A stretch of DNA of 24,000 nucleotides from Mycobacteriales bacterium (GTDB taxonomy: Bacteria; Actinomycetota; Actinomycetes; Mycobacteriales; Jatrophihabitantaceae): contig JBBQUT010000008.1 in NCBI GenBank assembly GCA_038212215.1, positions 82,854 through 106,853 on the forward strand, read 5' to 3'. Under the pieces are notes generated by a model. That model worked only from the letters and a program-made list of their open reading frames with translations, was not told the origin of the DNA and searched no databases. Positions 12,601-24,000 of this stretch are shown piece after piece. Within the stretch, counting starts at the first letter, position 1. Each line of letters opens with the position of its first letter. A program made the translations under genes and the position numbers.

Positions 12601-13659
12601 TCAACAGATACGCGGCAGTTGCTCACCCAGCGGAATGTCGACGACCCTGGTCGCCCCGAACGCGGTACCGGCCACCACCATGCCTGGGTGCTCGTCGACG
12701 CAGGCGCCGATGATCGCTGCCTGCTGCCCGAGCGGATGTGCCCGCATTGCAGCCAATACCGCCTCGGCGTGCTCGGGCGCCACGATGGCGACGAGCTTGC
12801 CCTCGTTGGCGACATACATCGGATCGAGCCCGAGCATCGCGCAGGCATTCCCGACCTCCGGCGGCACCGGGATGGCGCGTTCGGTGAGGTGGACACCGAC
12901 CCCGGCGGCTTTCGCGATCTCGTTCAGCGAGGTCGCCAACCCGCCGCGCGTCGGATCGCGCAGCACGTGCAGGTCGGTCGTCACGCGCAAAAGATCGGCG
13001 ACCAGTGAGTGCAGCGGTGCGGTGTCGCTGAAGATCTGCGCCTCGAACTCGAGACCCTCGCGCACGCTCATGATCGCGATGCCGTGCTCGCCGATCGCGC
13101 CGCTTACGATCACGACATCTCCGGGACGCGCCCGCTCGGGCCGGATGTCAACTCCGTCGGGCACCAGCCCGATGCCAGCCGTGTTCACGTACACCTGATC
13201 GCCGTGACCGGCGTCGACGACCTTCGTGTCCCCGGTGACGACAGCAACCCCCGCCTGCACGGCAGCGGCGCCGAGGTCCTTGGCGACACGAGCGATCACC
13301 GCGAGGTCGGTGCCCTCCTCCAGTACGAATCCGCAGGAGAGATAAGCAGGAACCGCGCCGCTCATCGCAAGATCGTTGACGGTTCCGTTCACTGCCAGAT
13401 CGCCGATCGAGCCGCCCGGGAAGAACAGCGGTCGCACCACGAATGTGTCTGTGGAGAAAGCGATCCGGACGCCGCCGAGTCGCACGACGGCGGAGTCCGC
13501 GAGCCCGCCCGGAGCTGCACCGAATGCCGGCAGGAACAGGTTCTCGATGAGCTCCGCGGACAGCTGCCCGCCCCCGCCGTGACCCATGACCACGGTGGGG
13601 CTGTCGCGAAGCGGCGCCGGGCACGTCCACCCGTCGATGTCGAGCACGCTGTCAGCCAA
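12601..13659 (-). CDS. hypE: Hydrogenase maturation protein HypE (carbamoyl dehydratase)
   Basis: The AIR-synthase-like fold is indicated by [51 protein letters not shown] and [10 protein letters not shown], plus the diagnostic C-terminus PRIC. The listed start at 13659 is TTG, and GTG at 13647 is an alternative. The gene overlaps the hypD stop by 8 nt. Confidence 0.93.
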
Positions 13660-14767
13660 CGGGAGTCACCTCGCGCTGCGTGTTCAGCCGCCGATAGAGG
13701 TAGTACGCGGCGCAGGCACCTTCGCTGGACACCATGGTCGCGCCCAGCGGTTTGCGGGGCGTGCAGGTCGTGCCGAACGCGCTGCACTCGTGCGGCTTGA
13801 TCAGCCCCTGCAGCACCTCACCGCTGCGGCAGACGGAGGACTCCGCGGTGTGGATGTCGCTGACGTCGAAGCGGTACTCGGCGTCAAGGGCGCGATACTT
13901 CGCGGCTAATCGCCAACCGCTGTCGGGGATCGTGCCGATGCCGCGCCAGCCGCGGTCGGTGATCTCGAAGACGTCGTCGATCAGCTTGCGGGCGGCCAGG
14001 TTGCCCTCGGCGGTGACGGCACGCGGGTACGCGTTGTCGAGTCGCGCTTCACCGGCTTCGAGCTGGCGGACGGTGCGGCGAATACCTTCCAGGATGTCGA
14101 GCGGCTCGAATCCGGTGACAACGATCGGGATGCGGAATTTGTCGACGAGAGCGGGGTACTCCTCGATCCCCATCACGCTGCACACATGACCCGCGGCAAG
14201 GAATGCCTGCACGCGGCAACTGGGCGACTGCATGATCGCCTCGATCGCCGGGGGCACGCGCACGTGCGAGACGAGCATGCTGAAGTTCGCGATTGCGAGC
14301 CGGTTGGCCTGGTAGACCGCCATCGCATTCGGCGGCGCGGTGGTCTCGAAACCGATACCGAAGAAAACCACTTGTCGCTCAGGGTTCTCGCGGGCGATCT
14401 TCAACGCGTCCAGTGGCGAGTAGACAACACGCACGTCGCCGCCCTCGCTCTTGACGCGGAACAAATCCCGCTCGCTGCCGGGCACCCGCAGCATGTCGCC
14501 GAACGAGCAGAAGATCACGCCGGGACGGGAAGCGATCTCCAACGCCTTGTCGATCAGCGCCAGCGGCGTGACGCACACCGGGCAGCCCGGTCCGTGAATC
14601 ATCTCGACTTGATCGGGCAGTAGCTGGTCGATCCCGTGCCTGATGATGGAGTGCGTCTGCCCGCCGCACACCTCCATGATCGCCCAGGGCTTCGTCACCG
14701 TCCGGCGGATGTCGTCGAATAATCGCGCCGCAAGATCCGGGTCGCTGAACTCCTCGAGATACTTCAC
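13652..14767 (-). CDS. hypD: Hydrogenase maturation protein HypD ([4Fe-4S] scaffold), 371 aa
   Basis: The sequence contains [30 protein letters not shown] and a C-terminal Cys cluster, [26 protein letters not shown] shortened the start to GTG 14767 (VKYLEEF), which forms a GTGA overlap with the hypC stop. Confidence 0.93.
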
Positions 14768-15054
14768 CGCGGTGCCTCCTCGCCCGCCTCGGCCGCCGCC
14801 TGTGCCCACGCGTCGCCGAATTCTTTGTCTAGTTCACCGAGTTCGCGAAAGTGCGCGAGTGTGTCCATCGCCGACTGCTCATCCAAGCGCTGCAACGCGA
14901 ATCCGACGTGCACGATCGCGTACTCCCCCACCTGGATGTCGGGCACGAACTCGAGGCACACCTCCTTCTCGACACCGCCGAAGTCCACCGTCGCCATGCG
15001 GGTCTGGTCTTTCTCCCAGATCTCGCACACTCGGCCGGGAACGGCTAGGCACAT
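14764..15054 (-). CDS. hypC: HypC/HupF-family hydrogenase assembly chaperone (96 aa)
   Basis: The N-terminus MCLAVPGRV has the essential Cys2. The OB-fold signature is [21 protein letters not shown]. The gene overlaps the hypF 3' end by 10 nt. Confidence 0.92.
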
Positions 15055-17369
15055 GCGGTCCTCCTTGGGTCGTTATCGGTCGGGGTGATGCGTGCCGCGA
15101 CGGCCAATTGGCCGAGGGCGAGGCCCGCGTCGCTGGGCGGCACAAGTCGATGCCGCAACACCTGGAATCCCACCGCTGCCAGGCGATCCACGCACAACGT
15201 CGTGAGCACGGCGTTGAGGAACACACCGCCGGAGAGCGCGACGCGACTCAGCCCGGTGCGGTTGCGCACCGCCTGGGCCTGCGCGAGAACGAGGTCGGCG
15301 ACCGCGTGGTGGAAGCGTGCAGCGACAACGTCCTCGGCTACTCCGGCGAGGACGTCCGCAGCCGCCGACGCGATGACCGGTGCTGCATCAAAATTCTCCG
15401 AGAAAGACCTGTCGCCGAAGGAGTACGGCCGCCCGCACCGGTCGAGCGCGCCACGGGCCACTTCTTCGAAACGCATCGCAGCCTCCGCCTCGTAGTCGCA
15501 GCGGTGACACACGCCGGTCAGCGAGGACATCGCGTCGAACAGCCGGCCCATGCTCGAAGTCGGCGTGCAACCGAAGCCGGTATCGAGTTGCCGGGCCAGC
15601 ACGCGGCGTTCGACTGCCGACCCTGCGGCGACGCACGGCAACCGCTCATCCCACACGACACCGGCCGCCCGCAGGTGCGACAGCGCCATGCGCCAGGGGT
15701 TACGCACCCCCGCATCACCGCCGGGAAGGGCGACGTAGCCGAGATGGGCCACCCGCTGGTACCCGTCGTAGTCGGCGAGCAGCACCTCGCCACCCCATAC
15801 GGCCCCATCGTCGCCGTAACCGGTGCCGTCGAAAGCGAATCCGATCACCCGTGACGATCCGTCGAACCCGTTCTCGGCCAGCGCGGCGGCGATGTGCGCA
15901 TGGTGGTGCTGCACCGTTCGCAGTGGCAGCCCGCACGAGCGGGCCCAAGCGCTGCTGCGGAACGCTGGGTGGCGGTCGGCGACGACGACTTCGGGACGGA
16001 CCTGCGTCAGCGCCGCCAGATGCGTGGTCGCGGTCTCGAACGCCGCCAGAGTGGCGAGATCGTCCATGTCGCCGATGTGCGCGGACATCCAGGCGTAGCG
16101 GCCTTCACCCATGCAGAACGTGTTCTTCAGGTCGCCGCCGACCGCGAGTGCGGGCCGCACGGGTATGGGCATCGCAATCGGCATCGGCGCATATCCACGG
16201 GAGCGGCGCACCGGCAACGGCGCTTCGCCGGCCGGTCGCACGATCGAGTCGTCGCACGGCACGTGGATCGGGCGGTCGTGGCCGAGCCAAGCGTCCGCAA
16301 GCGGGGCCAACCTGGTGCGCGCTTCAGCATCGTCAATGACGATCGGCTCACCCGAGACGTTCCCGCTGGTCATCACCAGCACGCGTGGGCCCGGTGGATC
16401 CCCCGCGAGCCCGAACAGCAGCTGATGAACTGGGGTGTAGGCCAGCATGACACCGAGATCGGGATGCGCTGGGGCGACCGCTTCGGCCACGACGACGGGG
16501 TGGCGTTTGGGTAGCAGCACGACGGGCCGACGCGGGTCGTTGAGCTGCGCGCGTGCCTCCTCGGACACCAGCACGATCGACTGCGCGCAAGCCAGATCAG
16601 CGACCATCACGGCAAATGGCTTGTCGCCGCGGTCTTTGCGTTTGCGCAGCGACGACACGGCGGCGCCGTTCGTCGCGTCGCAGGCCAGGTGATAGCCGCC
16701 CAGGCCCTTTACTGCGACGACGGCACCTGCCGACAGCGCACGGCGGGTCTCGGCCATCGCAACCCCACCGTGGACGTCGGCTGCGCCGGGACGGTACAGG
16801 GTCAGGGTCGGCCCGCACTGCGGGCAGGCGACGGTCTGGGCGTGGAAGCGGCGGTCCGCGGGGTCGGCATACTCGCTCTCGCAGCGTTCGCACAACGGGA
16901 GATCTGCCATCGTGGTGGCCGGTCGGTCGTAGGGCAACGCACGCACGATGGTGAAGCGGGGCCCGCAATTGGTGCAACTGATGAACGGGTGGCGGTAGCG
17001 ACGGTCGTCGGGGTCCGCGAGTTCGGCAAGGCAATCGGCGCAGGTCGCGATGTCTGGTGACACCAGCGTTCGCCCGCTGCCGCCTTGCGATCCGGCGATG
17101 CTGAAGCCGGTGCCCCCGGCGCAGGCGATCACCTCATTCGTCGTGCGTTCCACCCGAGCGAGCGGTGGCGCGTCGGCGCACACGCGCGCGCCGAATTCCG
17201 CGAGCGCGACCGTGTCACCCTCGACCTCGATCGTGACCCCGGCGGCGGTATTGCCGACGGAACCGCTGAGTCCGAGTTCGCAGGCCAGGGCGTAGACGAA
17301 GGGGCGAAAGCCAACGCCCTGGACGACACCTTCCACCTGGACGCGAAGGCGCGCGCGCGTGCTGTTCAT
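15045..17369 (-). CDS. hypF: Carbamoyltransferase HypF (774 aa)
   Basis: The acylphosphatase-like N-terminus is VEGVVQGVGFRPFVY. There are two zinc-finger pairs, CADCLAEL...CTNCGPRFT and CERCESEY...CPQCGP. A YrdC-like domain (VAVKGLGGYHLACDA) and a Kae1-like C-terminal domain follow. Confidence 0.95.
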   Translation of the reverse strand: MNSTRARLRVQVEGVVQGVGFRPFVYALACELGLSGSVGNTAAGVTIEVEGDTVALAEFGARVCADAPPLARVERTTNEVIACAGGTGFSIAGSQGGSGRTLVSPDIATCADCLAELADPDDRRYRHPFISCTNCGPRFTIVRALPYDRPATTMADLPLCERCESEYADPADRRFHAQTVACPQCGPTLTLYRPGAADVHGGVAMAETRRALSAGAVVAVKGLGGYHLACDATNGAAVSSLRKRKDRGDKPFAVMVADLACAQSIVLVSEEARAQLNDPRRPVVLLPKRHPVVVAEAVAPAHPDLGVMLAYTPVHQLLFGLAGDPPGPRVLVMTSGNVSGEPIVIDDAEARTRLAPLADAWLGHDRPIHVPCDDSIVRPAGEAPLPVRRSRGYAPMPIAMPIPVRPALAVGGDLKNTFCMGEGRYAWMSAHIGDMDDLATLAAFETATTHLAALTQVRPEVVVADRHPAFRSSAWARSCGLPLRTVQHHHAHIAAALAENGFDGSSRVIGFAFDGTGYGDDGAVWGGEVLLADYDGYQRVAHLGYVALPGGDAGVRNPWRMALSHLRAAGVVWDERLPCVAAGSAVERRVLARQLDTGFGCTPTSSMGRLFDAMSSLTGVCHRCDYEAEAAMRFEEVARGALDRCGRPYSFGDRSFSENFDAAPVIASAAADVLAGVAEDVVAARFHHAVADLVLAQAQAVRNRTGLSRVALSGGVFLNAVLTTLCVDRLAAVGFQVLRHRLVPPSDAGLALGQLAVAARITPTDNDPRRTACA

Positions 17370-18121
17370 TGCGCCTGCTCGATGAGCACGGCGTTGGTGC
17401 GCGCCAGCTGCTCGGCACTGCGCGACTCAAGTTGCGCAAGCTGATCGGGGGTCAGGATGTCGCACACCCAGTCCCAGTGCATCGCGACGTGCGCACCGAC
17501 GGTGAGCGTGGCTCGGTCCTCGCCCAGCAAAGACACACTGCCGACTGACCACGCAGCATTCTGCTCGACCGGTTCGTCCAGAGCGAGCAGCCCGTCGCGC
17601 AGGACGAGCGGACGCGACCGGACGCGCACCCGCGTGCCTTCGACAGCGACAATCTGTCCCCACCTGATTCGGCACTGCTGCAGGATCGACACAGCTACAG
17701 CGACGTTGATTCCCTTGCGCAGCAGGCCGACCCATGGATAGACGACGAAGACCTGGAAGCTATGGTGCGCACTTCCGGGGCTCCAACTGGCACCGGGTTG
17801 GCCGGCGAAGCGCGCTTGCAATGTGGTCATCACGTCGCGGGGGGCGACGGCGTCGAGCAGGTCGTTGCCGATCCAGTACGCCTCCACCACCCGCGCGTCG
17901 AGCGGGTCGGCGATCCCGGTGCGGGCGGCGATGAGTTGAAGATAGGCCCAGGCGCCGTCGAAGTGGCGCGCGTGGTCGGCGATCTGCTCGTCGCCACGTA
18001 GTAGGAGCGAGGTGTCTCTCGGGCCGCAGTAGCCGAGTTCGTTGGGCGGATAGGCGTAGCGCGCGAACAGGCTCGCTCCCGTTATGGCTGTTCGGGCGCC
18101 GGCCAACTCGGTAGCGCTCAC
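17366..18121 (-). CDS. Conserved hydrogenase-cluster protein of unknown function (251 aa; I believe DUF6390-like, unverified) with a HypC-like C-terminal segment
   Basis: I shortened the start to GTG 18121 (VSATELAG), which forms GTGA with the upstream hypC-paralog stop. The 3' end forms ATGA with the hypF start. The N-terminus has ARYAYPPNELGYCGP. For the C-terminus see the finding on HypC-like similarity. Confidence 0.75.
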   Translation of the reverse strand: MSATELAGARTAITGASLFARYAYPPNELGYCGPRDTSLLLRGDEQIADHARHFDGAWAYLQLIAARTGIADPLDARVVEAYWIGNDLLDAVAPRDVMTTLQARFAGQPGASWSPGSAHHSFQVFVVYPWVGLLRKGINVAVAVSILQQCRIRWGQIVAVEGTRVRVRSRPLVLRDGLLALDEPVEQNAAWSVGSVSLLGEDRATLTVGAHVAMHWDWVCDILTPDQLAQLESRSAEQLARTNAVLIEQAQ

Positions 18122-18366
18122 TCCCTCGGCCGACCCATCATCTCCAGGCCGCTCAGCGCCGCTTCGGCCGCAGCCTCGTCGACGCATTCGACGACAAAGC
18201 CCATATGGATGATCACCCAGTCACCGGGTTTCAACGTCACCTGGTCCGCCTCGTCGAGCATCCCGATATTCACCCGACGCTGCGCACCGAGGACGTCCAC
18301 GAGCATCAGCTGATCGCCATAACCTTCGACTCGCGACAGCACGCGGCCGGGAATACCGAGACACAT
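18118..18366 (-). CDS. hypC: Second HypC/HupF-family chaperone paralog (82 aa)
   Basis: The sequence contains MCLGIPGRVLSRVEG...GDWVIIHMGFVVECVDEAAA. I shortened the start to ATG 18366, which is preceded by GGGGAGGG and lies 1 nt after the protease stop. Confidence 0.88.
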   Translation of the reverse strand: MCLGIPGRVLSRVEGYGDQLMLVDVLGAQRRVNIGMLDEADQVTLKPGDWVIIHMGFVVECVDEAAAEAALSGLEMMGRPRE

Positions 18367-18367
18367 C

Positions 18368-18946
18368 TCACCCTCCCCTCTGGAACCCAAGCTGCGCGGG
18401 CGGGTCGAGCCGGCCCGATCCCAAGGCACAGACCAGATTGTTGACCGCGGCGACCGCCTCGTCCACCGCGTCGTTCACCGGATCGCTCAGGCCGATGCCC
18501 TCGTCGAGGTCGGCGGGCACGCAGCCCACCAGATAGGTCGGGGGCAGCGTAGCCCCCATCGAGCCGAGGCTCGCCAGCACGGCGACCGGTGACATCGCGT
18601 GTGCGTCGAAGTCCGCGGCACCGATGTCGTCGGGCCCGACGGCCATCAGGGTAACCGTCCCGGGTGGAGCACCGGCCGGTCCATCGGGAGGTACCGCGTC
18701 CACTAGGACGAGCACGTCGACACCCTCCAGCAGGTCATAGGTCAGATACATCCCACGGATGCCGTAGTCGACGACGCGGACGTCCGCGGGTAGCGGCTCG
18801 GCCCGGGCACGCGACAGTAAAGCGGTCGCCACAGCCGGTCCGAATCCGTCGTCACCGAAGAAGATGTTTCCGATGCCGGCGACCAGAACGCGAACCCCCT
18901 GCTCAGACGTGATCTTCACCCCGGGTCGTGGTGTCGTTTGGTACAA
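18368..18946 (-). CDS. hupD: [NiFe]-hydrogenase maturation endopeptidase (HupD/HyaD/HybD family)
   Basis: VRVLVAGIGNIFFGDDGFGPAV matches the GxGNxxxxDDGxG motif. The sequence also has VVDYGIRGMYL, VLVDAV and DAHAMSP. The start is ambiguous: TTG 18946 as listed, or GTG 18919. Confidence 0.88.
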   Translation of the reverse strand: MYQTTPRPGVKITSEQGVRVLVAGIGNIFFGDDGFGPAVATALLSRARAEPLPADVRVVDYGIRGMYLTYDLLEGVDVLVLVDAVPPDGPAGAPPGTVTLMAVGPDDIGAADFDAHAMSPVAVLASLGSMGATLPPTYLVGCVPADLDEGIGLSDPVNDAVDEAVAAVNNLVCALGSGRLDPPAQLGFQRGG

Positions 18947-19001: not shown

Positions 19002-19202
19002 TCACGGTGACTGCAGGTTCGGCGCTTCGGCGCCAGAGGATTGCGGGTCTACCGAGGTGTCGGACCGCTCGTCCGACCCGCCCGCCGGCCGGTCGACCGG
19101 ACCCCCGGAGGGGCCATCCGATCCGGTGTCACGCGAGCCGGGGGCACCGCGCTCGGCTTGCGATTCCTCGTCGAGATTCGTTCCTGCTACGGCGTCAGGC
19201 AT
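19002..19202 (-). CDS. Small acidic, Gly/Ser/Pro/Asp-rich, probably disordered protein (66 aa), unknown function
   Basis: ATG 19202 is preceded by a strong SD (TAGGAGGAGCT-ATG). The sequence has 13 D/E against 4 R/K and no Cys. My hand count gives GC3 of ~74%, lower than my impression of the neighbouring genes but still coding-like. It sits between co-oriented operon genes. Confidence 0.5.
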   Translation of the reverse strand: MPDAVAGTNLDEESQAERGAPGSRDTGSDGPSGGPVDRPAGGSDERSDTSVDPQSSGAEAPNLQSP

Positions 19203-19210
19203 AGCTCCTC

Positions 19211-19315
19211 CTACATGCTTCGCATCTTCAGGTACCGCTTGATGTCAGGCAGTGAACGCACGCCCATCACCAGCGCACCAGCGGCGAACGCGGCAATCGC
19301 AACCGTCGCCAGCAT
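19211..19315 (-). CDS. 34-aa single-TM micro-protein, unknown function
   Basis: MLATVAIAAFAAGALVMGVRSLPDIKRYLKMRSM has one hydrophobic helix and a basic amphipathic tail. ATG 19315 lies 11 nt after the upstream stop and is preceded by GTAGGA. The ORF-track N-terminal extension overlaps the upstream gene. Confidence 0.5.
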   Translation of the reverse strand: MLATVAIAAFAAGALVMGVRSLPDIKRYLKMRSM

Positions 19316-19326
19316 TCCTACAGCTC

Positions 19327-20751
19327 TCACGATCGACTCTCCTCTCGGTTGTCGGACTGCACCGGAACATGCGGCGCAAGCTCGTCGGGGGCGAAGTAGA
19401 GGTAGCGGCCGTACCACTCGTGCAGATCCGCGGCCGGATCGTCGATCAGCACGACCGCGACGTGTGTTTCACCGTCGACATCGAAATGGACGCCCGCGAC
19501 CTTCGCGACGCGCCCCGCGAAGAACAGATCCTGCGCGTCGGCGCGTCGGGACGGGTGCACCGTCACCATGCTGCCCGCCGATACCGCGATACCGCCGATG
19601 AGCACCTCGTCCGTGCCCGGCGAAACGCTTTCGTCGGCAGAAGGATCCCACCAAGGCACCGCGCCGCCGAAATCAGTGCTGCCGAAGTCCGAGTCGTCGA
19701 AGCCGGATGAAGCATCGACGACGCTCTCGATCGCGTGCGGGTCGCGGAGAATGCCGTGCAGTTGCTGCATGTCCTGCGCCGACATCGCATCACAGCGATC
19801 GATGATCTGCGCCGCCATCGGATCGGTAGCGCGCGCCGCAGCCTTCTCTGCATCGGTCAGGGTCATGACTCGCAGCGTCAAAATCTCGTCGATCTCGGTG
19901 CTGTCGAACAATGCACCTGCGCTCTGCTCCGCAATCTCGGGGTGATCGTAGAGAATGATCGGTGACACCAGCATCAGCGAGTTGTCACCGGGCGGTCCAG
20001 CAAGCACCGGCCAGCAACGATGCTGCTTACACTCTCGCGCTGCATTCGCGTCGGGTGGATCTGTCATGGATAGGGCTTCGGCGTGCTCGAGTGATACCAA
20101 CAGATGGGCGCCGATGAACGACGCAGAGATCGCCGTCTCGCGGTCGCTCACGGCTGAAATGTCGGCAACGTTGGCGACGTTTGCGATACTCACCGAGAGC
20201 CGGAGCACATCGCCGATGCTCGTCATGTGGACCTGCAGTTCACCACGCAATTCGCGGCGGGTGCGTACCAGCCGACCGGCGAGCGCGCCGCCGTCGTCCC
20301 GGATCTCGTCGATGTCCTCGCCCGCAGGTACATGCAGGGCAACGCATCGAGGGTCCCCGAGCTGCTCGAGACGCCACGGCCCGACCGTGATCTCTCGTTC
20401 GCGTGCTTCGTCCCAACTCAGCCATCGCTGTTCGCCGACGATGAGTTCGGGCACGAACTCGAATTCACCGGTGCGCCCGCAACGCTGCGCCGCGCGCCGC
20501 TGCAACTGTAGAAAGCGCAGGTGCACGGTCACCGTGGCGTCGGCGAGGACGGGCGCGTGGAGCAAGAATTGGGATTCGAGCGTGGCGTCCTCGCCGTGCC
20601 CGGACTCCATCGCGCCGACGGGTCCCAGCACGCCGAACTGCCAGCGGGACTGGTTCTTGGCGGAACTGGCGCGATATGGGTAGAGCAGGTAACCCTCGTA
20701 CAGTACGGCGTCAGCAACGGTGCGCGCGTAACCCAGGCTGTCGGCGCTCAT
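19327..20751 (-). CDS. Conserved hydrogenase-cluster protein of unknown function (474 aa)
   Basis: I shortened the start to ATG 20751 (MSADSLGY...), which forms ATGA with the upstream stop. The ORF-track start at 21150 would overlap the upstream gene by 400 nt in another frame. The N-terminal motif is VLYEGYLLYPYRASSAKNQSRWQFGVLGP. I recognise no catalytic domain. Confidence 0.8.
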   Translation of the reverse strand: MSADSLGYARTVADAVLYEGYLLYPYRASSAKNQSRWQFGVLGPVGAMESGHGEDATLESQFLLHAPVLADATVTVHLRFLQLQRRAAQRCGRTGEFEFVPELIVGEQRWLSWDEAREREITVGPWRLEQLGDPRCVALHVPAGEDIDEIRDDGGALAGRLVRTRRELRGELQVHMTSIGDVLRLSVSIANVANVADISAVSDRETAISASFIGAHLLVSLEHAEALSMTDPPDANAARECKQHRCWPVLAGPPGDNSLMLVSPIILYDHPEIAEQSAGALFDSTEIDEILTLRVMTLTDAEKAAARATDPMAAQIIDRCDAMSAQDMQQLHGILRDPHAIESVVDASSGFDDSDFGSTDFGGAVPWWDPSADESVSPGTDEVLIGGIAVSAGSMVTVHPSRRADAQDLFFAGRVAKVAGVHFDVDGETHVAVVLIDDPAADLHEWYGRYLYFAPDELAPHVPVQSDNREESRS

Positions 20752-21389
20752 GAGCGACTCCGCTGATGGCCGCTGAGCAGGTCGCGCATCGTGTCGTCCC
20801 ACGAGGTGTCCCCGCGTGCGGCCTTGTGCCGTACCAGCGACTCGATGACGCCACGGTCCAGGCGCAGCCAGCCGGTGCCCGGGTAGTAGCTCTCGATCAT
20901 GTCGCGCCAGACGCTGATCGGCAGGTCGTAGCGGGCCTCGCGATCCCACGGCACCTGCTCGACGCCGAAGCCGCGCTCGCCGCGAGTGAAGATCGTCCCG
21001 GAGAACAGCAGGACCACGGACACCGCACCGTCGTGCAGCGCATGCAGATACTTGGACGCCGTGACGTCGAAGTCGTACGTGCACGGCAACGGCAGATCGA
21101 CCTCGGTACGGCCAGAGAAACCCTGCACCATCGTGCTTGTCTGCATCCACAGGAACGGCTTCAGCGTGTCGTACCAGCGCTCCCGCGCGCCGAACATGTC
21201 GAGCAAACCGCGCGCTTCCTCAGCGGTGTACGCGCGCCGTTGCGGCTCGATGCGCACCTGCACGCGCAGCGCGATCGTGTGCACCGGCGTTGCGGTCGAC
21301 TCCTCGACGCGCAGCCGCGCAGTCAGTTGTGGCGCGACCGCGTACGGCTCAGGAAAGATGTCGGCAACGGCGAAGGACACGTCGGTCAT
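20748..21389 (-). CDS. Conserved hydrogenase-cluster protein of unknown function (213 aa; I believe DUF6084-like, unverified)
   Basis: This is a clean ORF with ATGA overlaps at both ends. I recognise no motif. The sequence begins MTDVSFAVADIFPEPYAVAPQLTARLRVEE... Confidence 0.8.
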   Translation of the reverse strand: MTDVSFAVADIFPEPYAVAPQLTARLRVEESTATPVHTIALRVQVRIEPQRRAYTAEEARGLLDMFGARERWYDTLKPFLWMQTSTMVQGFSGRTEVDLPLPCTYDFDVTASKYLHALHDGAVSVVLLFSGTIFTRGERGFGVEQVPWDREARYDLPISVWRDMIESYYPGTGWLRLDRGVIESLVRHKAARGDTSWDDTMRDLLSGHQRSRS

Positions 21390-22048
21390 CGGGTGCCCTC
21401 ACTCGCGGCCTGCGTTCGGCCGGCGACCGGCCGGCTGCGCGCGGTGACCTTCTCGAAGAACGACTCGATGTGCGCCCGCGCGTCCTGCCCGCCGTCGAAG
21501 CCTCGCCACAGCGAGCGCAACCGTCCGACGAGTTCGTAGCACGTGTCGATGGGGACGAGATGGCAGCTGAGCTGACCCGATCCGCGACCCGGCGTGCGCA
21601 CGAGCAGAGCTTCGACGTCGGGTAGGAGCGTGTCCAGTTCGGGATTGTCGGCGCACACCGTGCTCCATGCGTCCAGCGGCAGTTCGGATTCCGTCGCGCC
21701 CGCCGGGCCGGGATAAAAGGCGACCACCCGTCCGAGCGTCGAATTGTGGAAGAAGAACGCGAGCCCGACCGGGATTTCCAGCTCGTCCCATTGCCCTGGC
21801 CCCAGCTGGAAGTCCGGGAACGTGAGGTAGCGGTCCGGTACGGCGCGGTAGCGCAGTTCCGCACCGTCCGCCGTGAATAGCAGGTAGCACGGACGGCAGG
21901 TGCACATCAGCGACCGGTTGGTGCGGTCGACGACGTGTGAGTGCTCGTCGCCGACGGCGACGCCGCACATCTCGCAGACCTCGCCCGCCGGGGGCTGTGG
22001 CGGCCGCGCGGCGATACGACGCAGCACGAACAACGGCGTCGCGCTCAT
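21386..22048 (-). CDS. Conserved hydrogenase-cluster protein of unknown function with an N-terminal Cys/His metal-binding-like motif (220 aa; I believe DUF5947-like, unverified)
   Basis: The N-terminal motif is C25-E-M-C28 ... H36-S-H38 ... C49-T-C51-R-P-C54. The 3' end forms an ATGA overlap with the next gene. Confidence 0.8.
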   Translation of the reverse strand: MSATPLFVLRRIAARPPQPPAGEVCEMCGVAVGDEHSHVVDRTNRSLMCTCRPCYLLFTADGAELRYRAVPDRYLTFPDFQLGPGQWDELEIPVGLAFFFHNSTLGRVVAFYPGPAGATESELPLDAWSTVCADNPELDTLLPDVEALLVRTPGRGSGQLSCHLVPIDTCYELVGRLRSLWRGFDGGQDARAHIESFFEKVTARSRPVAGRTQAASEGTR

Positions 22049-22052
22049 GCCA

Positions 22053-22086
22053 ACGCCGCGCTCACGACAACGCCGCGCTCACGACA
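22053..22086. repeat. Perfect 17-bp tandem duplication (ACGCCGCGCTCACGACA x2) spanning the hhyE-like stop codon
   Basis: The copies lie at 22053-22069 and 22070-22086. The gene's TGA (22079-22081) lies in copy 2, and the equivalent TGA in copy 1 sits in the 30-nt intergenic gap before ATG 22048. Confidence 0.85.
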
Positions 22087-22993
22087 GCGCCGCGGACGGC
22101 ACTGCCACCGAGAGGATGCCGTCCCGGACGAGCACCGGCAGCGGCTCGAGGTGCTCGCTCGGGTCGTCGAGACCAGCGCCTGCGCGGCGAACGTCGAAAT
22201 GTGCATGGCACGAGCCGCACCGCAGCACGCCAGTGCCGACCGGATCGCCCAGCCGGCGCTCGACGACACCGCCGGCGAGGCTTTGCCCGCAGTGCGCACA
22301 GCGGTCGCGGAAACAGAAAACGTCATTGCCGATGCGGCAGGCGCACACGACAAGGCCCGCAATGTCGAAACCGGCGAGCGCGCCGGACGCGAGGCCGGCA
22401 AGCTCCGGCAGCGCCGCCCAAGTCGCGTCCGCCGGGCGGTCGATCCGTGCCCGCAGCGAGTCGAGCGAGATCACCCCGCCGACCGGACGCGCATCGCTAG
22501 GCCCGCTGGCATCGACCTCGATGCGTGTCATCTCCGGCGCGGCGGCTTCGACCGCACCTTCGACCGCGAGTTGCAGCGTGACTGACGACGACGGGCATCC
22601 GTCGCAGCTGCCGAGCAGCCGCAATCGAACCACGCCGGCGTCGTCGATCCCGACCAGTTCGACATCGCCGCCGTGTGAGCCGAGGTAAGGCCGCACTGTG
22701 TCCAGCGCGCGCCGGATGCGGGTCTCGGCGTCGTAGGGATGCAGATCGTGCACAAGCAGCAGGCCCGACACCAGTTCGTCGTCGACGAGCGCGTCCAGAA
22801 CCGATGCGTCGAGCCGGCCCGCGTCATCGAGAATTTCCAGCACCCGTCCCAGTCCCGCGCCGTATAACCCGGACACGCAAGCGACCAAGTCCTCGGCCCG
22901 CGTTCGCGAGGCCGGTCCCCCGGCGGCGCTTGCCTCGATCAGCGCCTCGATCCGGTCACCGACCGAGCGCAATTGTTCGTTCGCTACCGTCAT
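22079..22993 (-). CDS. hhyE: Hydrogenase-associated putative Fe-S protein: NifU-C-like domain plus Rieske-like domain (HhyE-type), 304 aa
   Basis: I shortened the start to ATG 22993, which forms ATGA with the hhyL stop. The NifU-like region is VRPYLGSHGGDVELVGIDDAGVVRLRLLGSCDGCPSSSVTL. The C-terminus CFRDRCAHCGQSL...VLRCGSCHAHFDV shows a CxH...CxxH Rieske-type pattern with extra Cys residues. Confidence 0.8.
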   Translation of the reverse strand: MTVANEQLRSVGDRIEALIEASAAGGPASRTRAEDLVACVSGLYGAGLGRVLEILDDAGRLDASVLDALVDDELVSGLLLVHDLHPYDAETRIRRALDTVRPYLGSHGGDVELVGIDDAGVVRLRLLGSCDGCPSSSVTLQLAVEGAVEAAAPEMTRIEVDASGPSDARPVGGVISLDSLRARIDRPADATWAALPELAGLASGALAGFDIAGLVVCACRIGNDVFCFRDRCAHCGQSLAGGVVERRLGDPVGTGVLRCGSCHAHFDVRRAGAGLDDPSEHLEPLPVLVRDGILSVAVPSAALS

Positions 22994-24000
22994 TCGCCGG
23001 TGACGGACTGCGTGGGCGAATGCAGGGTCTGCAACGTCTTGCCTTCGCCGAGGTACATGTGCACGCCGCACGGCAGGCACGGATCGAAGCTGCGGACCGT
23101 GCGCATGATGTCGATTCCCTTGAAGTGCTCGCGATCGTTCTCCTCGAAGATCGGCTGACCCTGCACGGCGTCCTCGTAAGGGCCGGGTGTGCCATAGGAA
23201 TCGCGCGGGTTCGCATTCCACGGCGTCGGCGGATACGGATGGTAGTTGGCAATCTTGCCGTCGCGGATCACCATGTGGTGGCTGAGCACCCCGCGCACGG
23301 CCTCGGTGAAGCCGCAGCCGATTCCCTCGTCAGGAACTTCGAACGTTTCCCACGTCTTGGTCCGACCGGCACGAATCTCCACGAGCGCTTTCTCGGCGAA
23401 GTGCAACGCGCACGCCGCGGCGTAGGCCTGGAAGTAGGTGCGGGCCCGGTTGCGCTCGATGGTGTTGCTCCACTGCGGGATCTTCCATTCGAACTCGACC
23501 GGCGGCTTCAATGCGGTCTTCGGCAAGTTGATCTTGACGCTGCTGCCGGTCGACTTGACGTAGCCGATGTCGACCAAGCCGGCCAGCGCGGTCGTCCACA
23601 ATCTGGCGAGCGGGCCACCGCCTGTGTCGAGCGCGAGATAGTCCTTGCCGTCGTACCAGCGCGGCGACATCACCCAGCTGTACTTGTCGTCCAGGTTGCG
23701 CTTCTGCGGGCGGGGGTTCGTGTGCTGGTTCCACGGGTGGCGACGATCCACCGGATTGCCCAGCGGATCGGTCTTGACGAAGGTCTCCTGTCCTTCCCAG
23801 TCGTCGTAGTAGGAGCTGCCGAGCAGGATCCGGATGCCGAGGTTGATCTCCACCAGGTCCGTGGTGACCAGCTTGCCGTCAACGACGATGCCGGGGGTCA
23901 CGTACATCTTGCGACCCCACTGCGTCATGTCCTTGTAGTCGAAATTGCAATACTCCGGATCCTGGAATGACCCCCAACACGCAAGCAGCGTGCGGCGAAG
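22990..24000 (-). CDS. hhyL: [NiFe]-hydrogenase large subunit, group 1h/5 (Hhy-type); C-terminal 336 aa only, 5' end beyond the right edge
   Basis: The frame stays open upstream of the listed M at 23928 to position 24000 (...LRRTLLACWGSFQDPEYCNFDYKDMTQWGRK...). The C-terminal Ni-binding motif is RSFDPCLPCGVH, followed by a 22-aa tail. The genomic context is a protease, hyp genes and an HhyE-like gene. Confidence 0.9.
   Translation of the reverse strand, partial: LRRTLLACWGSFQDPEYCNFDYKDMTQWGRKMYVTPGIVVDGKLVTTDLVEINLGIRILLGSSYYDDWEGQETFVKTDPLGNPVDRRHPWNQHTNPRPQKRNLDDKYSWVMSPRWYDGKDYLALDTGGGPLARLWTTALAGLVDIGYVKSTGSSVKINLPKTALKPPVEFEWKIPQWSNTIERNRARTYFQAYAAACALHFAEKALVEIRAGRTKTWETFEVPDEGIGCGFTEAVRGVLSHHMVIRDGKIANYHPYPPTPWNANPRDSYGTPGPYEDAVQGQPIFEENDREHFKGIDIMRTVRSFDPCLPCGVHMYLGEGKTLQTLHSPTQSVTGE

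Follow-up and report, generated by a model that had tools for sequence, protein, structure and literature searches.

The 24,000-nt window, i.e., the whole stretch of DNA analysed, carried three consecutive genes on its minus strand, coding for a DUF5947 protein of 220 aa (21386..22048; PHG067/MSMEG_2717 type), a DUF6084 protein of 213 aa (20748..21389; PHG068 type) and a protein of 474 aa without Pfam family (19327..20751; PHG069 type). As read in the original prediction, these genuine genes were joined by ATGA overlaps, located at 21386-21389 between the DUF5947 and DUF6084 genes and at 20748-20751 between the DUF6084 and 474-aa genes. The length of 474 aa was counted from the ATG at 20751; the raw open reading frame (ORF) reached a GTG farther upstream.

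The neighbours, all on the minus strand, corresponded to those originally described. Upstream lay the 3' part of hhyL (22990..24000, the gene exiting the window), coding for the large subunit of a group 1h [NiFe]-hydrogenase, in which the L2 motif SFDPCLPCGVH was followed by the conserved C-terminal tail MYLGEGKTLQTLHSPT, the tail peptide of pre-HhyL being MYLGEGKTLQTLHSPTQSVTGE. The hhyL gene was joined by another ATGA overlap (22990-22993) to the gene coding for HhyE (22079..22993), a protein made of an N-terminal helical region, a NifU-like domain with a CxxC motif (Pfam NifU, E 5.6e-22) and a C-terminal Cys-rich Rieske-like domain (weak Rieske-ferredoxin NCBIfam matches). The gap between HhyE and DUF5947 was about 30 nt here and fell inside a 17-bp tandem repeat. 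Downstream, a maturation endopeptidase of the HupD/HycI family (18368..18946; Pfam HycI and TIGR00072, E 1.4e-32) preceded the hyp cluster (12601..18366), which encompassed HypC (18118-18366), DUF6390 (17366-18187), HypF (15045-17369), HypD (13652-14809) and HypE (12601-13659), as displayed by Pfam matches.

Two small ORFs on the minus strand, overlooked in the first reading of the sequence, lay between the 474-aa gene and the protease. The first one (19211..19330) encoded a micro-protein of 34-39 aa assigned to DUF6893 (PF21833; E 2.1e-15, 56.9 bits for a gathering cutoff of 24.6 bits), with a single transmembrane (TM) helix and a basic tail PDxKRYLKMRxM, and its start overlapped the stop of the 474-aa gene as GTGA. 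The second one (19002..19202), recognised by reading the sequence, encoded an acidic low-complexity product of 66 aa, was preceded by a GGAGGAG ribosome-binding site and gave no match in Pfam.

Conservation of the locus and its known counterparts

The gene order HhyL, HhyE, DUF5947, DUF6084, 474-aa protein and protease was kept in 80 of 80 actinobacterial species genomes and on two proteobacterial plasmids, in agreement with the earlier statement that such genes accompany group 1h hydrogenases. Overlaps of 4 nt (NTGA) were retained in most loci, at the DUF5947/DUF6084 junction (62/77) as well as at the DUF6084/474-aa junction (70/79), and the proposed translational coupling was conserved. At loci across phyla, the module was always found with 1h genes or with the protease, and group 1h motifs were present in every associated large subunit whose motifs were examined. 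Full-length large subunits of loci L081, L082, L084 and L087 displayed both L1 (TSRICGICGDNH) and L2 (SFDPCLPCGVH), and L2 was present in the window and in L089, both of which held the 3' part of hhyL only. The tail MY(L/V)GxG(K/R).L..HSP was common to all associated large subunits examined, and would be a conserved substrate for the endopeptidase. The N-terminal half of HhyE (HhyE-N) was conserved in PHG066 of C. necator, in M. parvus and in metagenomic loci. DUF6084 was missing from some module loci and is dispensable in some lineages.

In 74 of 78 loci, a micro-ORF of the type matching DUF6893 separated the 474-aa gene from the protease; DUF6893 was placed after the protease in L084, L087 and a contig with a hypA-hypB-module layout. 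About 14 loci had the 66-aa ORF in the corresponding place (48-85% identity), and in mycobacterial loci it was located at other points of the hyp cluster. YceI-family genes, a family linked to polyisoprenoid binding, adjoined the module in L084 and L087.

The three genes are known conserved hypotheticals of group 1h/5 clusters and are not newly found. PHG067-PHG069 from C. necator pHG1, the genes following hhyE/MSMEG_2718 from MSMEG_2717 onwards in M. smegmatis and hhaABC from Thermomicrobium roseum are direct orthologues, alike in order and in overlapping starts, and nothing essential differs between them and the genes described here. On pHG1 (tblastn, 34-46% identity, order preserved), DUF5947, DUF6084 and a hypothetical protein are annotated between a NifU-family gene and the protease, as in the window. 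Compared to known clusters, the window showed in addition the Rieske-like C-terminal domain of HhyE, the 17-bp repeat at the HhyE/DUF5947 junction and the two small ORFs before the protease. These conserved hypotheticals have been named hhaABC, and were co-induced with structural hydrogenase genes (PMC6776052); PHG066-069 have been labelled "unknown function" (PMC4377017) and PHG067/MSMEG_2717 has been suggested as an electron acceptor (PMC6883350). Literature searches on the DUF families, the hha genes, HhyE and cryo-EM of Hhy brought up no study of the function or structure of these proteins, in line with the claim that they have no established role. The module had also been called undescribed, which holds for its function and not for its genes, two of which are Pfam DUFs and one of which had already been floated as an electron acceptor.

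Families, predicted folds and ligand motif

The DUF5947 protein matched its family (PF19372; E 3.7e-75) with 251.9 bits over profile positions 2-176 of 177 (gathering cutoff 25 bits). Its N-terminus harbored a Cys5His2 motif, C-x2-C-x7-H-x-H-x10-C-x-C-x2-C, predicted to bind metal, whose residues (C25, C28, H36, H38, C49, C51 and C54) were invariant in 13 sequences across phyla. Neither Pfam nor NCBIfam detected a ferredoxin, rubredoxin or Rieske domain in this protein, zinc-finger matches being sporadic and sub-threshold. The paired Cys knuckles forming the Zn site of the zinc-ribbon nickel metallochaperone HypA resemble the DUF5947 N-terminus, and DUF5947 was set shortly after hypA and hypB on one contig. 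However, DUF5947 differs from HypA by the extra HxH and CxCxxC elements and by its C-terminal domain, about 150 aa in length and unrelated, and their alignment (hhalign) reached a probability of 2%, with the Cys knuckles alone aligned.

The DUF6084 protein matched PF19562 (E 2.7e-93) with 311.8 bits over profile positions 1-211 of 213 (gathering cutoff 25 bits). Its AlphaFold2 (AF2) model (pLDDT 77) displayed a beta-sandwich of Ig-like, LEA-2 or ApaG-like type followed by C-terminal helices, and Foldseek against the PDB returned only generic beta-sandwich domains (Ig-like, LEA-2 and ApaG-type) with target-normalised TM-scores of at most 0.45. The 474-aa protein fell into no Pfam or NCBIfam family, although its homologues numbered 8,000 or more at 90% clustering, and its representative matches 4,560 at 50% clustering. 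Its AF2 model (pLDDT 80.7) began with a helix bearing a conserved motif, continued into a large beta-sandwich and an acidic helical region, also conserved, and ended in an SH3-like domain. Foldseek found no global match to this model in the PDB, only the SH3-like domain resembling PetP, BAH and nitrile hydratase beta, and gave small SH3-like phage proteins only in the viral BFVD. Both proteins modelled as non-enzymatic beta-sandwiches, and no redox-cofactor motif was present in either of them. Conservation peaked in low-pLDDT segments (residues 11-40 and 261-310 of the 474-aa protein, residues 49-83 of DUF6084), a pattern typical of partner-binding regions.

The earlier view that none of the three proteins carries a catalytic or Hyp-family domain was upheld, searches of Pfam, NCBIfam, PADLOC, PHROGs and PDB sequences giving DUF labels or nothing. 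NCBIfam, PADLOC and PHROGs returned nothing for any of the three, PDB profile searches with the three family alignments (A1-A3) yielded chance-level matches only, and hhalign detected no kinship among the families. Pfam and NCBIfam showed no match to Hyp (HypA-F) or HycI profiles, to thioredoxin-like, peroxidase or ATPase domains, or to models of group 1d accessory chaperones (HyaE, HyaF-HupH and HoxO, Q, R, T and V).

Two other identities of the 474-aa protein were considered and rejected. A weak match to Phage_TAC_7 at residues 281-332 was found in 67 of 77 family members (best E 2.9e-4), the members not being mutually independent, and scored 15.9 bits in the window for a gathering cutoff of 25 bits. 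The DISARM protein DrmA was the top Foldseek match in the PDB (7s9v_A, E 1.6e-5), but with a TM-score of 0.22 and an rmsd of 21.9, and PADLOC remained empty. Both matches could be taken as hints that the genes are unrelated passengers, for instance the remnant of a phage or defence element, neighbouring the hydrogenase by coincidence. Given a synteny kept in 80 of 80 loci and across phyla, with either 1h genes or the protease invariably at hand, the probability of this reading is close to negligible; the empty PADLOC and PHROGs searches, and a BFVD search yielding small SH3-like domains only, also speak against it.

Gene fusions and alternative operons

In-frame fusions of the 474-aa protein with the endopeptidase were found in seven of ten long representatives (Pfam scan) and appeared again in assemblies independent of one another, among them an Acidimicrobiaceae MAG from NCBI; ten further long relatives brought no additional fusions. 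The fused endopeptidase domain was intact, retaining the GNxxxGDDGxG, DA and DAH motifs, and in L084 it was the sole protease of the cluster. Other fusions joined DUF6084 to the 474-aa protein (a 28-member cluster), DUF5947 to the 474-aa protein (4 contigs) and the NifU-like HhyE-N to DUF5947 (L087 and L089). HhyE-N and DUF5947 are probably fused in S. cattleyicolor as well, where they read in one stop-free frame.

Some lineages keep the module together with hypA, hypB and the protease, apart from the structural genes. One contig carried hypA, hypB, HhyE-N, DUF5947, the 474-aa gene, the protease and DUF6893 on one strand, and HhyLS and hypCDE on the opposite strand. At another locus, HhyE-N, a DUF5947/474-aa fusion and the protease were encoded together, and no gene for a hydrogenase lay closer than 8 kb. 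The protease fusions and the operons shared with maturation genes favor assembly or cofactor insertion over coupling to the quinone pool. Among the roles originally put forward, the first one is therefore preferred and quinone coupling loses ground, while tethering at the membrane is still conceivable. Read at the sequence level, the fusions suggest that these proteins help in final enzyme assembly together with the processing protease, rather than carrying electrons. The block of three genes described originally was present, but the functional unit appeared larger, with the addition of HhyE-N, the protease and DUF6893.

A candidate module for the assembly of group 1h hydrogenases

With a probability of about one half, we consider that the three proteins, HhyE-N and the HupD-type endopeptidase, probably with DUF6893, constitute a module dedicated to late-stage assembly and maturation of group 1h [NiFe]-hydrogenases. 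DUF5947 would be its metal-binding component, through the Cys5His2 motif, and the physical partner of the N-terminal domain of HhyE. DUF6084 and the 474-aa protein would act as non-catalytic beta-sandwich scaffolds or chaperones, whose most conserved loops may become ordered only upon binding of a partner. These scaffolds would hold the large-subunit precursor, or an assembly intermediate of the large and small subunits, beside the endopeptidase, which would cut off the conserved C-terminal tail of HhyL once the metal is inserted; DUF6893 may locate this processing step at the membrane. While the genes with their coupling, synteny, fusions, operon variants, ligand motif and non-enzymatic folds were observed directly, the physical complex, its substrate and its step of action are inferred.

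Several observations are at odds with a role in maturation. Neighbouring genes of an operon may fuse, and the fusion persist, without their products sharing a step. In actinobacteria, overlaps chain the genes to hhyL and hhyE, the so-called structural operon, and their induction goes along with that of the structural genes. DUF5947, with seven invariant Cys/His ligands, could be a redox protein, and the TM peptide DUF6893 and the YceI neighbours would suit a link to the membrane or to quinones. DUF6084 is absent in some lineages. Moreover, Methylacidiphilum fumariolicum SolV possesses an active, membrane-associated, high-affinity 1h enzyme, reportedly without these genes (PMC7174314), so that the module is not a universal requirement for 1h maturation.

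Part of these observations would fit an electron relay and membrane tether connecting mature cytosolic HhyLS to the menaquinone pool, with DUF5947 as carrier, a beta-sandwich scaffold functioning like HucM and DUF6893 as anchor. The invariant ligands, the electron-acceptor proposal for PHG067/MSMEG_2717 (PMC6883350), the overlaps and co-induction with hhyLS, the TM micro-protein following the 474-aa gene in 74 of 78 loci and the adjoining YceI-family genes in L084 and L087 all point in this direction, as does the membrane association of Hhy, which has no TM subunit. We nevertheless regard it as unlikely. Against it stand the recurrent fusion to an intact endopeptidase and the operons grouping the module with hypAB and the protease away from hhyLS, and neither the 474-aa protein nor DUF6084 bears a cofactor motif. 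HhyE-N is in many cases no Fe-S protein: C. necator, L085 and L087 lack its CxxC, and this speaks against electron relay as a universal role. None of the three proteins was among those selected for listing from the Hhy activity band of M. smegmatis, which were HhyS and HhyL only, and the C. necator enzyme is described as two-subunit and cytoplasmic despite the module being encoded.

A third reading is that the module protects or repairs Hhy, stabilising or re-metallating it (Fe-S clusters or Ni) over long dormancy in air, instead of serving primary biogenesis. Induction of the genes with Hhy under starvation or persistence, the fusion of a NifU-like domain to a Cys/His-rich protein and the behaviour of an optional add-on, given that an active 1h enzyme exists without the module in at least one organism, are in its favor. 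It is improbable in our view, as the endopeptidase fusion points to a one-off step of biogenesis and the thioredoxin-like, peroxidase or ATPase domains looked for in Pfam and NCBIfam were absent from the three proteins; on sequence data alone, it also largely overlaps the maturation reading.

Assembly by dedicated accessory proteins has counterparts in other hydrogenases. Group 1d accessory sets (HoxL/O/Q/R/T/V of the R. eutropha MBH, HyaE/HyaF of E. coli) are thought to chaperone the assembly of subunits and cofactors in air and are likewise non-Hyp proteins, specific to one class and encoded between structural and protease/hyp genes. They showed no sequence relationship to the proteins described here (Pfam, NCBIfam), which combine beta-sandwich and SH3-like folds with a Cys5His2 motif, and a role as Tat-signal chaperone does not apply since group 1h small subunits are cytosolic and without signal peptide. 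HucM of the group 2a hydrogenase Huc (PMC10017518) is likewise an extra protein found with a high-affinity, O2-insensitive hydrogenase without cytochrome b anchor, and a scaffold or membrane-link role is conceivable in both cases. However, no homology to HucM was found. HucM co-purifies with mature Huc, none of the three proteins was among those selected for listing from the Hhy activity band, and the 474-aa protein occurs fused to the maturation protease.

Group 1h hydrogenases, which enable soil bacteria to live on hydrogen taken from the air, constitute a major biological sink for atmospheric H2, and their insensitivity to O2 makes them attractive as catalysts. Their assembly in air and the membrane link of a cytosolic two-subunit enzyme are questions in the field (PMC6883350, PMC7174314, PMC10657181), and among the unexplained components of the locus the genes described here are the best conserved, the family of the 474-aa protein by itself comprising more than 4,500 clusters at 50% identity without a Pfam model. 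The fusion evidence moves these proteins from "conserved hypotheticals" to a specific and testable prediction, a joint action with the endopeptidase, within reach of the existing genetics of M. smegmatis and C. necator, which also bears on the design of synthetic operons for producing hydrogenases. A bolder and more tentative proposal, which we hold to be somewhat unlikely, is that HhyE-N, DUF5947, the 474-aa protein, the endopeptidase, DUF6893 and, where present, DUF6084 form an unrecognised and very widespread "maturasome" for atmospheric-H2 hydrogenases. Its protein families, and at least one of its folds, would have no characterised relative, and its task would be to link, at the membrane and in the presence of air, the joining of the subunits with two steps on the large subunit, metal insertion and C-terminal processing. 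If true, this maturasome could be what the heterologous production of O2-insensitive, high-affinity hydrogenases has been lacking.

Gene order and junctions of the hydrogenase block

The genes lying between hhyE and the maturation protease were all encoded on the minus strand. They comprised a DUF5947 gene (21386..22048, 220 aa, Pfam E 3.7e-75), a DUF6084 gene (20748..21389, 213 aa, Pfam E 2.7e-93) and a gene for a 474-aa protein (19327..20751), starting with the ATG at 20751 within a raw open reading frame of 19327..21150. ORFs of these sizes, joined by two ATGA overlaps, had been announced by the original prediction, and both overlaps were read directly in the sequence, as 'ccgATGAccg' at the DUF5947/DUF6084 boundary and 'tcATGAgcg' at the DUF6084/474-aa boundary. 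All three ORFs were genuine genes, as displayed by the two Pfam matches and by thousands of homologous clusters for the third.

On the 5' side, only the 3' end of hhyL was covered (minus strand, from 22990 up to the window edge); it encoded the group 1h L2 motif SFDPCLPCGVH and, at the C-terminus, a tail of 22 aa. It overlapped by ATGA with hhyE (22079-22993, minus strand), which encoded a NifU and Rieske-like protein. A 30-nt spacer separated hhyE from the DUF5947 gene, whereas 50 of the 75 related loci compared had a 4-nt overlap there. Across the stop codon of hhyE and the start codon of the DUF5947 gene ran a tandem repeat of 17 bp (22040-22094; 3.2 copies, 92% matches), which probably pushed the two genes apart.

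The block as predicted held for its three genes, but two small ORFs before the protease had been overlooked. The first (19211-19330, minus strand, 39 aa) was a DUF6893 micro-protein with one transmembrane (TM) helix and the tail PDIKRYLKMRSM, whose GTG start overlapped the stop of the 474-aa gene. Similar micro-ORFs (one TM helix, tail PDxxRYLKMRxM) occupied this place in 74 of 78 related loci and were found 3' of the protease in other phyla. The second, between the DUF6893 ORF and the protease (19002-19202, minus strand), encoded an acidic, low-complexity protein of 66 aa behind a strong ribosome-binding site (GGAGGAG). It matched no Pfam family. About 14 loci had a conserved counterpart in this position (48-85% identity), and in mycobacterial loci it was found at other points of the hyp cluster. 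Genes for the maturation endopeptidase, HypC, DUF6390, HypF, HypD and HypE followed in this order on the same strand. DUF6390 (17366-18187, minus strand, E 7e-83), a conserved protein of unknown function, occurred in 62 of the 80 related loci, with varying position and orientation.

When one genome per species was scanned, at least 580 relatives of the 474-aa protein were confirmed; 80 loci were kept, all in assemblies labelled actinobacterial apart from one labelled Sericytochromatia. The order HhyL, HhyE, DUF5947, DUF6084, 474-aa protein, (DUF6893), protease, HypC was found in 80 of 80, with gaps at contig ends only. The 4-nt NTGA overlaps recurred at the DUF5947/DUF6084 (62 of 77 loci) and DUF6084/474-aa junctions (70 of 79). 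A search of 72,556 plasmids gave the same 13 records for DUF5947 as for the 474-aa protein; DUF6084 matched 11 of these 13. Gene order was identical, with overlapping reading frames, on Cupriavidus necator pHG1 and a Methylocystis parvus plasmid, and the three genes mapped onto PHG067, PHG068 and PHG069 of pHG1 (PMC4377017). The full-length large subunits of four compared Hhy loci (L081, L082, L084 and L087) all displayed the group 1h motifs TSRICGICGDNH and SFDPCLPCGVH; the latter was also present in the window and L089 subunits, covered by the 3' part of the gene only. The predicted companionship with group 1h hydrogenases was thus borne out by the 80 loci, the two proteobacterial plasmids and the large-subunit motifs. 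Because of this synteny and of negative PADLOC, PHROGs and BFVD searches, it is very unlikely that the genes are passengers or of phage origin.

Sequence and structure of the encoded proteins

As predicted, no catalytic domain was recognisable: Pfam returned only DUF5947 and DUF6084, and the 474-aa protein matched nothing in Pfam or NCBIfam. Its homologues nevertheless formed at least 8,000 clusters at 90% identity, every one labelled 'hypothetical', and its profile obtained 4,560 matches at E<=1e-3 (1,631 at E<=1e-30) among 1.84 billion representatives. The AF2 model (pLDDT 80.7) displayed four parts: an N-terminal helix, a large and very confident beta-sandwich (residues 57-263), a helical region (285-347) and a C-terminal SH3-like domain. 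Foldseek gave no global match in the PDB or the viral library BFVD, and the SH3-like domain was the sole part matching PetP, BAH and nitrile hydratase beta. DISARM DrmA (7s9v_A) was the best PDB match (E 1.6e-5, probability 1.0); with a TM of 0.22 and an rmsd of 21.9 over 344 columns, and PADLOC negative, a DrmA identity was not supported.

In a set of 128 diverse representatives (33-60% identity), the 474-aa protein was conserved chiefly in residues 11-40 (AD..L.EGY.LYPYR...KN..R...G..P) and 261-310 (P..L.D.P..A..S.....D..EIDE.L.L......EK....D). Both segments had low pLDDT, while the confident beta-sandwich was poorly conserved. DUF6084 (pLDDT 77) was modelled as a beta-sandwich with C-terminal helices; its Foldseek matches were generic sandwiches throughout (Ig-like, LEA-2, ApaG, Kir-type; target-normalised TM <=0.45), and its conservation was likewise concentrated in low-pLDDT segments. 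Such a pattern is expected of subunits ordering only within a complex, and the models suggest that these segments may be functional surfaces of that kind. Neither protein showed a cofactor-binding or catalytic signature.

DUF5947 harbored the ligand motif C-x2-C-x7-H-x-H-x10-C-x-C-x2-C, with C25, C28, H36, H38, C49, C51 and C54 invariant in 13 of 13 sequences from actinobacteria, alpha- and beta-proteobacteria and metagenomic lineages. Database searches echoed only sporadic, sub-threshold zinc-finger matches, and a comparison with HypA was negative.

Only the N-terminal half of HhyE (HhyE-N, helical and NifU-like) was conserved across phyla. C. necator PHG066, L085 and L087 lacked the CxxC of the NifU-like domain, and the Rieske-like Cys-rich C-terminal domain of the window HhyE was absent from five of five orthologues compared, which weakens the view of HhyE as a universal Fe-S electron carrier. 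The large-subunit tail beyond the cleavage-site His (window 22990-23055, minus strand) was conserved across phyla. All six subunits compared (window, L081, L082, L084, L087 and L089) shared MY(L/V)GxG(K/R).L..HSP, and the module might use this tail for recognition.

Fusions and alternative operons

Ten of the long representatives of the 474-aa family were searched with Pfam. Seven were fused in frame to a HycI/HupD endopeptidase; the fusions were full-length in independent assemblies (one an NCBI Acidimicrobiaceae MAG), with intact protease motifs and short linkers, and in L084 the fused gene was the only protease of the cluster. One of the ten was a DUF6084/474-aa fusion, representing a 28-member cluster on many contigs, and one a DUF5947/474-aa fusion found on four contigs. 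Upstream of fused genes, HhyE-N was often fused to DUF5947 (375 aa in L087; 399 aa in L089, with both Pfam domains). The same fusion is probably encoded by S. cattleyicolor pSCAT, judging from HhyE-like and DUF5947 regions in one stop-free frame. Through these fusions, HhyE-N, DUF5947, DUF6084, the 474-aa protein and the endopeptidase are linked up as a single functional unit.

The pSCAT locus (NC_016113.1, 553000-577000) was rearranged, with the protease and 474-aa genes upstream of HhyL and no DUF6084 detectable within 24 kb. Two further layouts set the module apart from the structural genes. One contig carried hypA, hypB, HhyE-N, DUF5947, 474-aa, protease and DUF6893 genes on one strand, with HhyLS and hypCDE opposite. 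In the other locus, the protease accompanied HhyE-N and the DUF5947/474-aa fusion, and none of the genes within 8 kb coded for a hydrogenase. DUF6084 was missing in these three variant loci. The partner kept upon rearrangement was the protease, once also hypAB, and not HhyLS.

A proposed role in late assembly of group 1h hydrogenases

Endopeptidases of the HybD/HycI type act once, on the Ni-loaded large-subunit precursor. Given this one-time action, the fusions and the protease partnership, the favoured reading (probability about 0.5) is a module for late steps of assembly and maturation, specific to the main lineage of group 1h. It would consist of HhyE-N, DUF5947, DUF6084, the 474-aa protein, the HupD/HycI endopeptidase and the DUF6893 micro-protein. 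DUF5947 and HhyE-N would form its metal-handling part, the DUF6084 and 474-aa beta-sandwich proteins would be chaperones or scaffolds presenting the precursor or an L/S intermediate to the protease, and DUF6893 would possibly site this step at the membrane.

An electron relay or membrane tether is unlikely by comparison, and a protection or repair role is more doubtful still. The rivals are kept alive by the overlap coupling of the actinobacterial genes to hhyL and hhyE, the seven invariant Cys/His ligands of DUF5947, the TM micro-protein within the module and the YceI-family genes adjoining it in some loci. MSMEG_2717, the Mycobacterium smegmatis counterpart of PHG067, has been mentioned as a possible electron acceptor in a paper that also allowed for an assembly role (PMC6883350). 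For the M. smegmatis Hhy activity band, the proteins chosen to be listed were HhyS and HhyL. The reported complete absence of the module from Methylacidiphilum also speaks for the rivals: according to Schmitz et al., homologues are not encoded in M. fumariolicum SolV, whose 1h enzyme is nonetheless active, membrane-associated and of high affinity (PMC7174314).

YceI-family genes directly followed DUF6893 in two Hhy clusters of metagenomic or MAG origin; a PadR-YceI fusion lay upstream of hhyS. YceI-type genes were located in L084 (10044-10565), L087 (11084-11596 and 2576-3772) and L088, and might account for the missing link between Hhy and quinone.

The nearest functional analogues are isoenzyme-specific accessory proteins of group 1d O2-tolerant hydrogenases (HoxL/O/Q/R/T/V, HyaE/F); the proteins could be assigned neither to these nor to Hyp proteins, phage TACs or DrmA. 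The genes themselves are known unknowns, in line with the predicted absence of an established role. Those of Thermomicrobium roseum (hhaABC) were described as conserved hypotheticals induced 5.5-fold on starvation (PMC6776052), those of C. necator (PHG066-069) as of 'unknown function' (PMC4377017), and a literature search returned nothing on the function of DUF5947, DUF6084, DUF6893 or DUF6390. New here are a wider definition of the module, the fusions to the endopeptidase, the operons linked to hypAB, the frequent Cys loss in HhyE-N, the invariant DUF5947 ligand motif, the size of the family of the 474-aa protein, for which Pfam has no model, and the two small ORFs. With its function put forward as a proposal, the module is directly relevant to an unsettled point in the biology of atmospheric H2 oxidisers.
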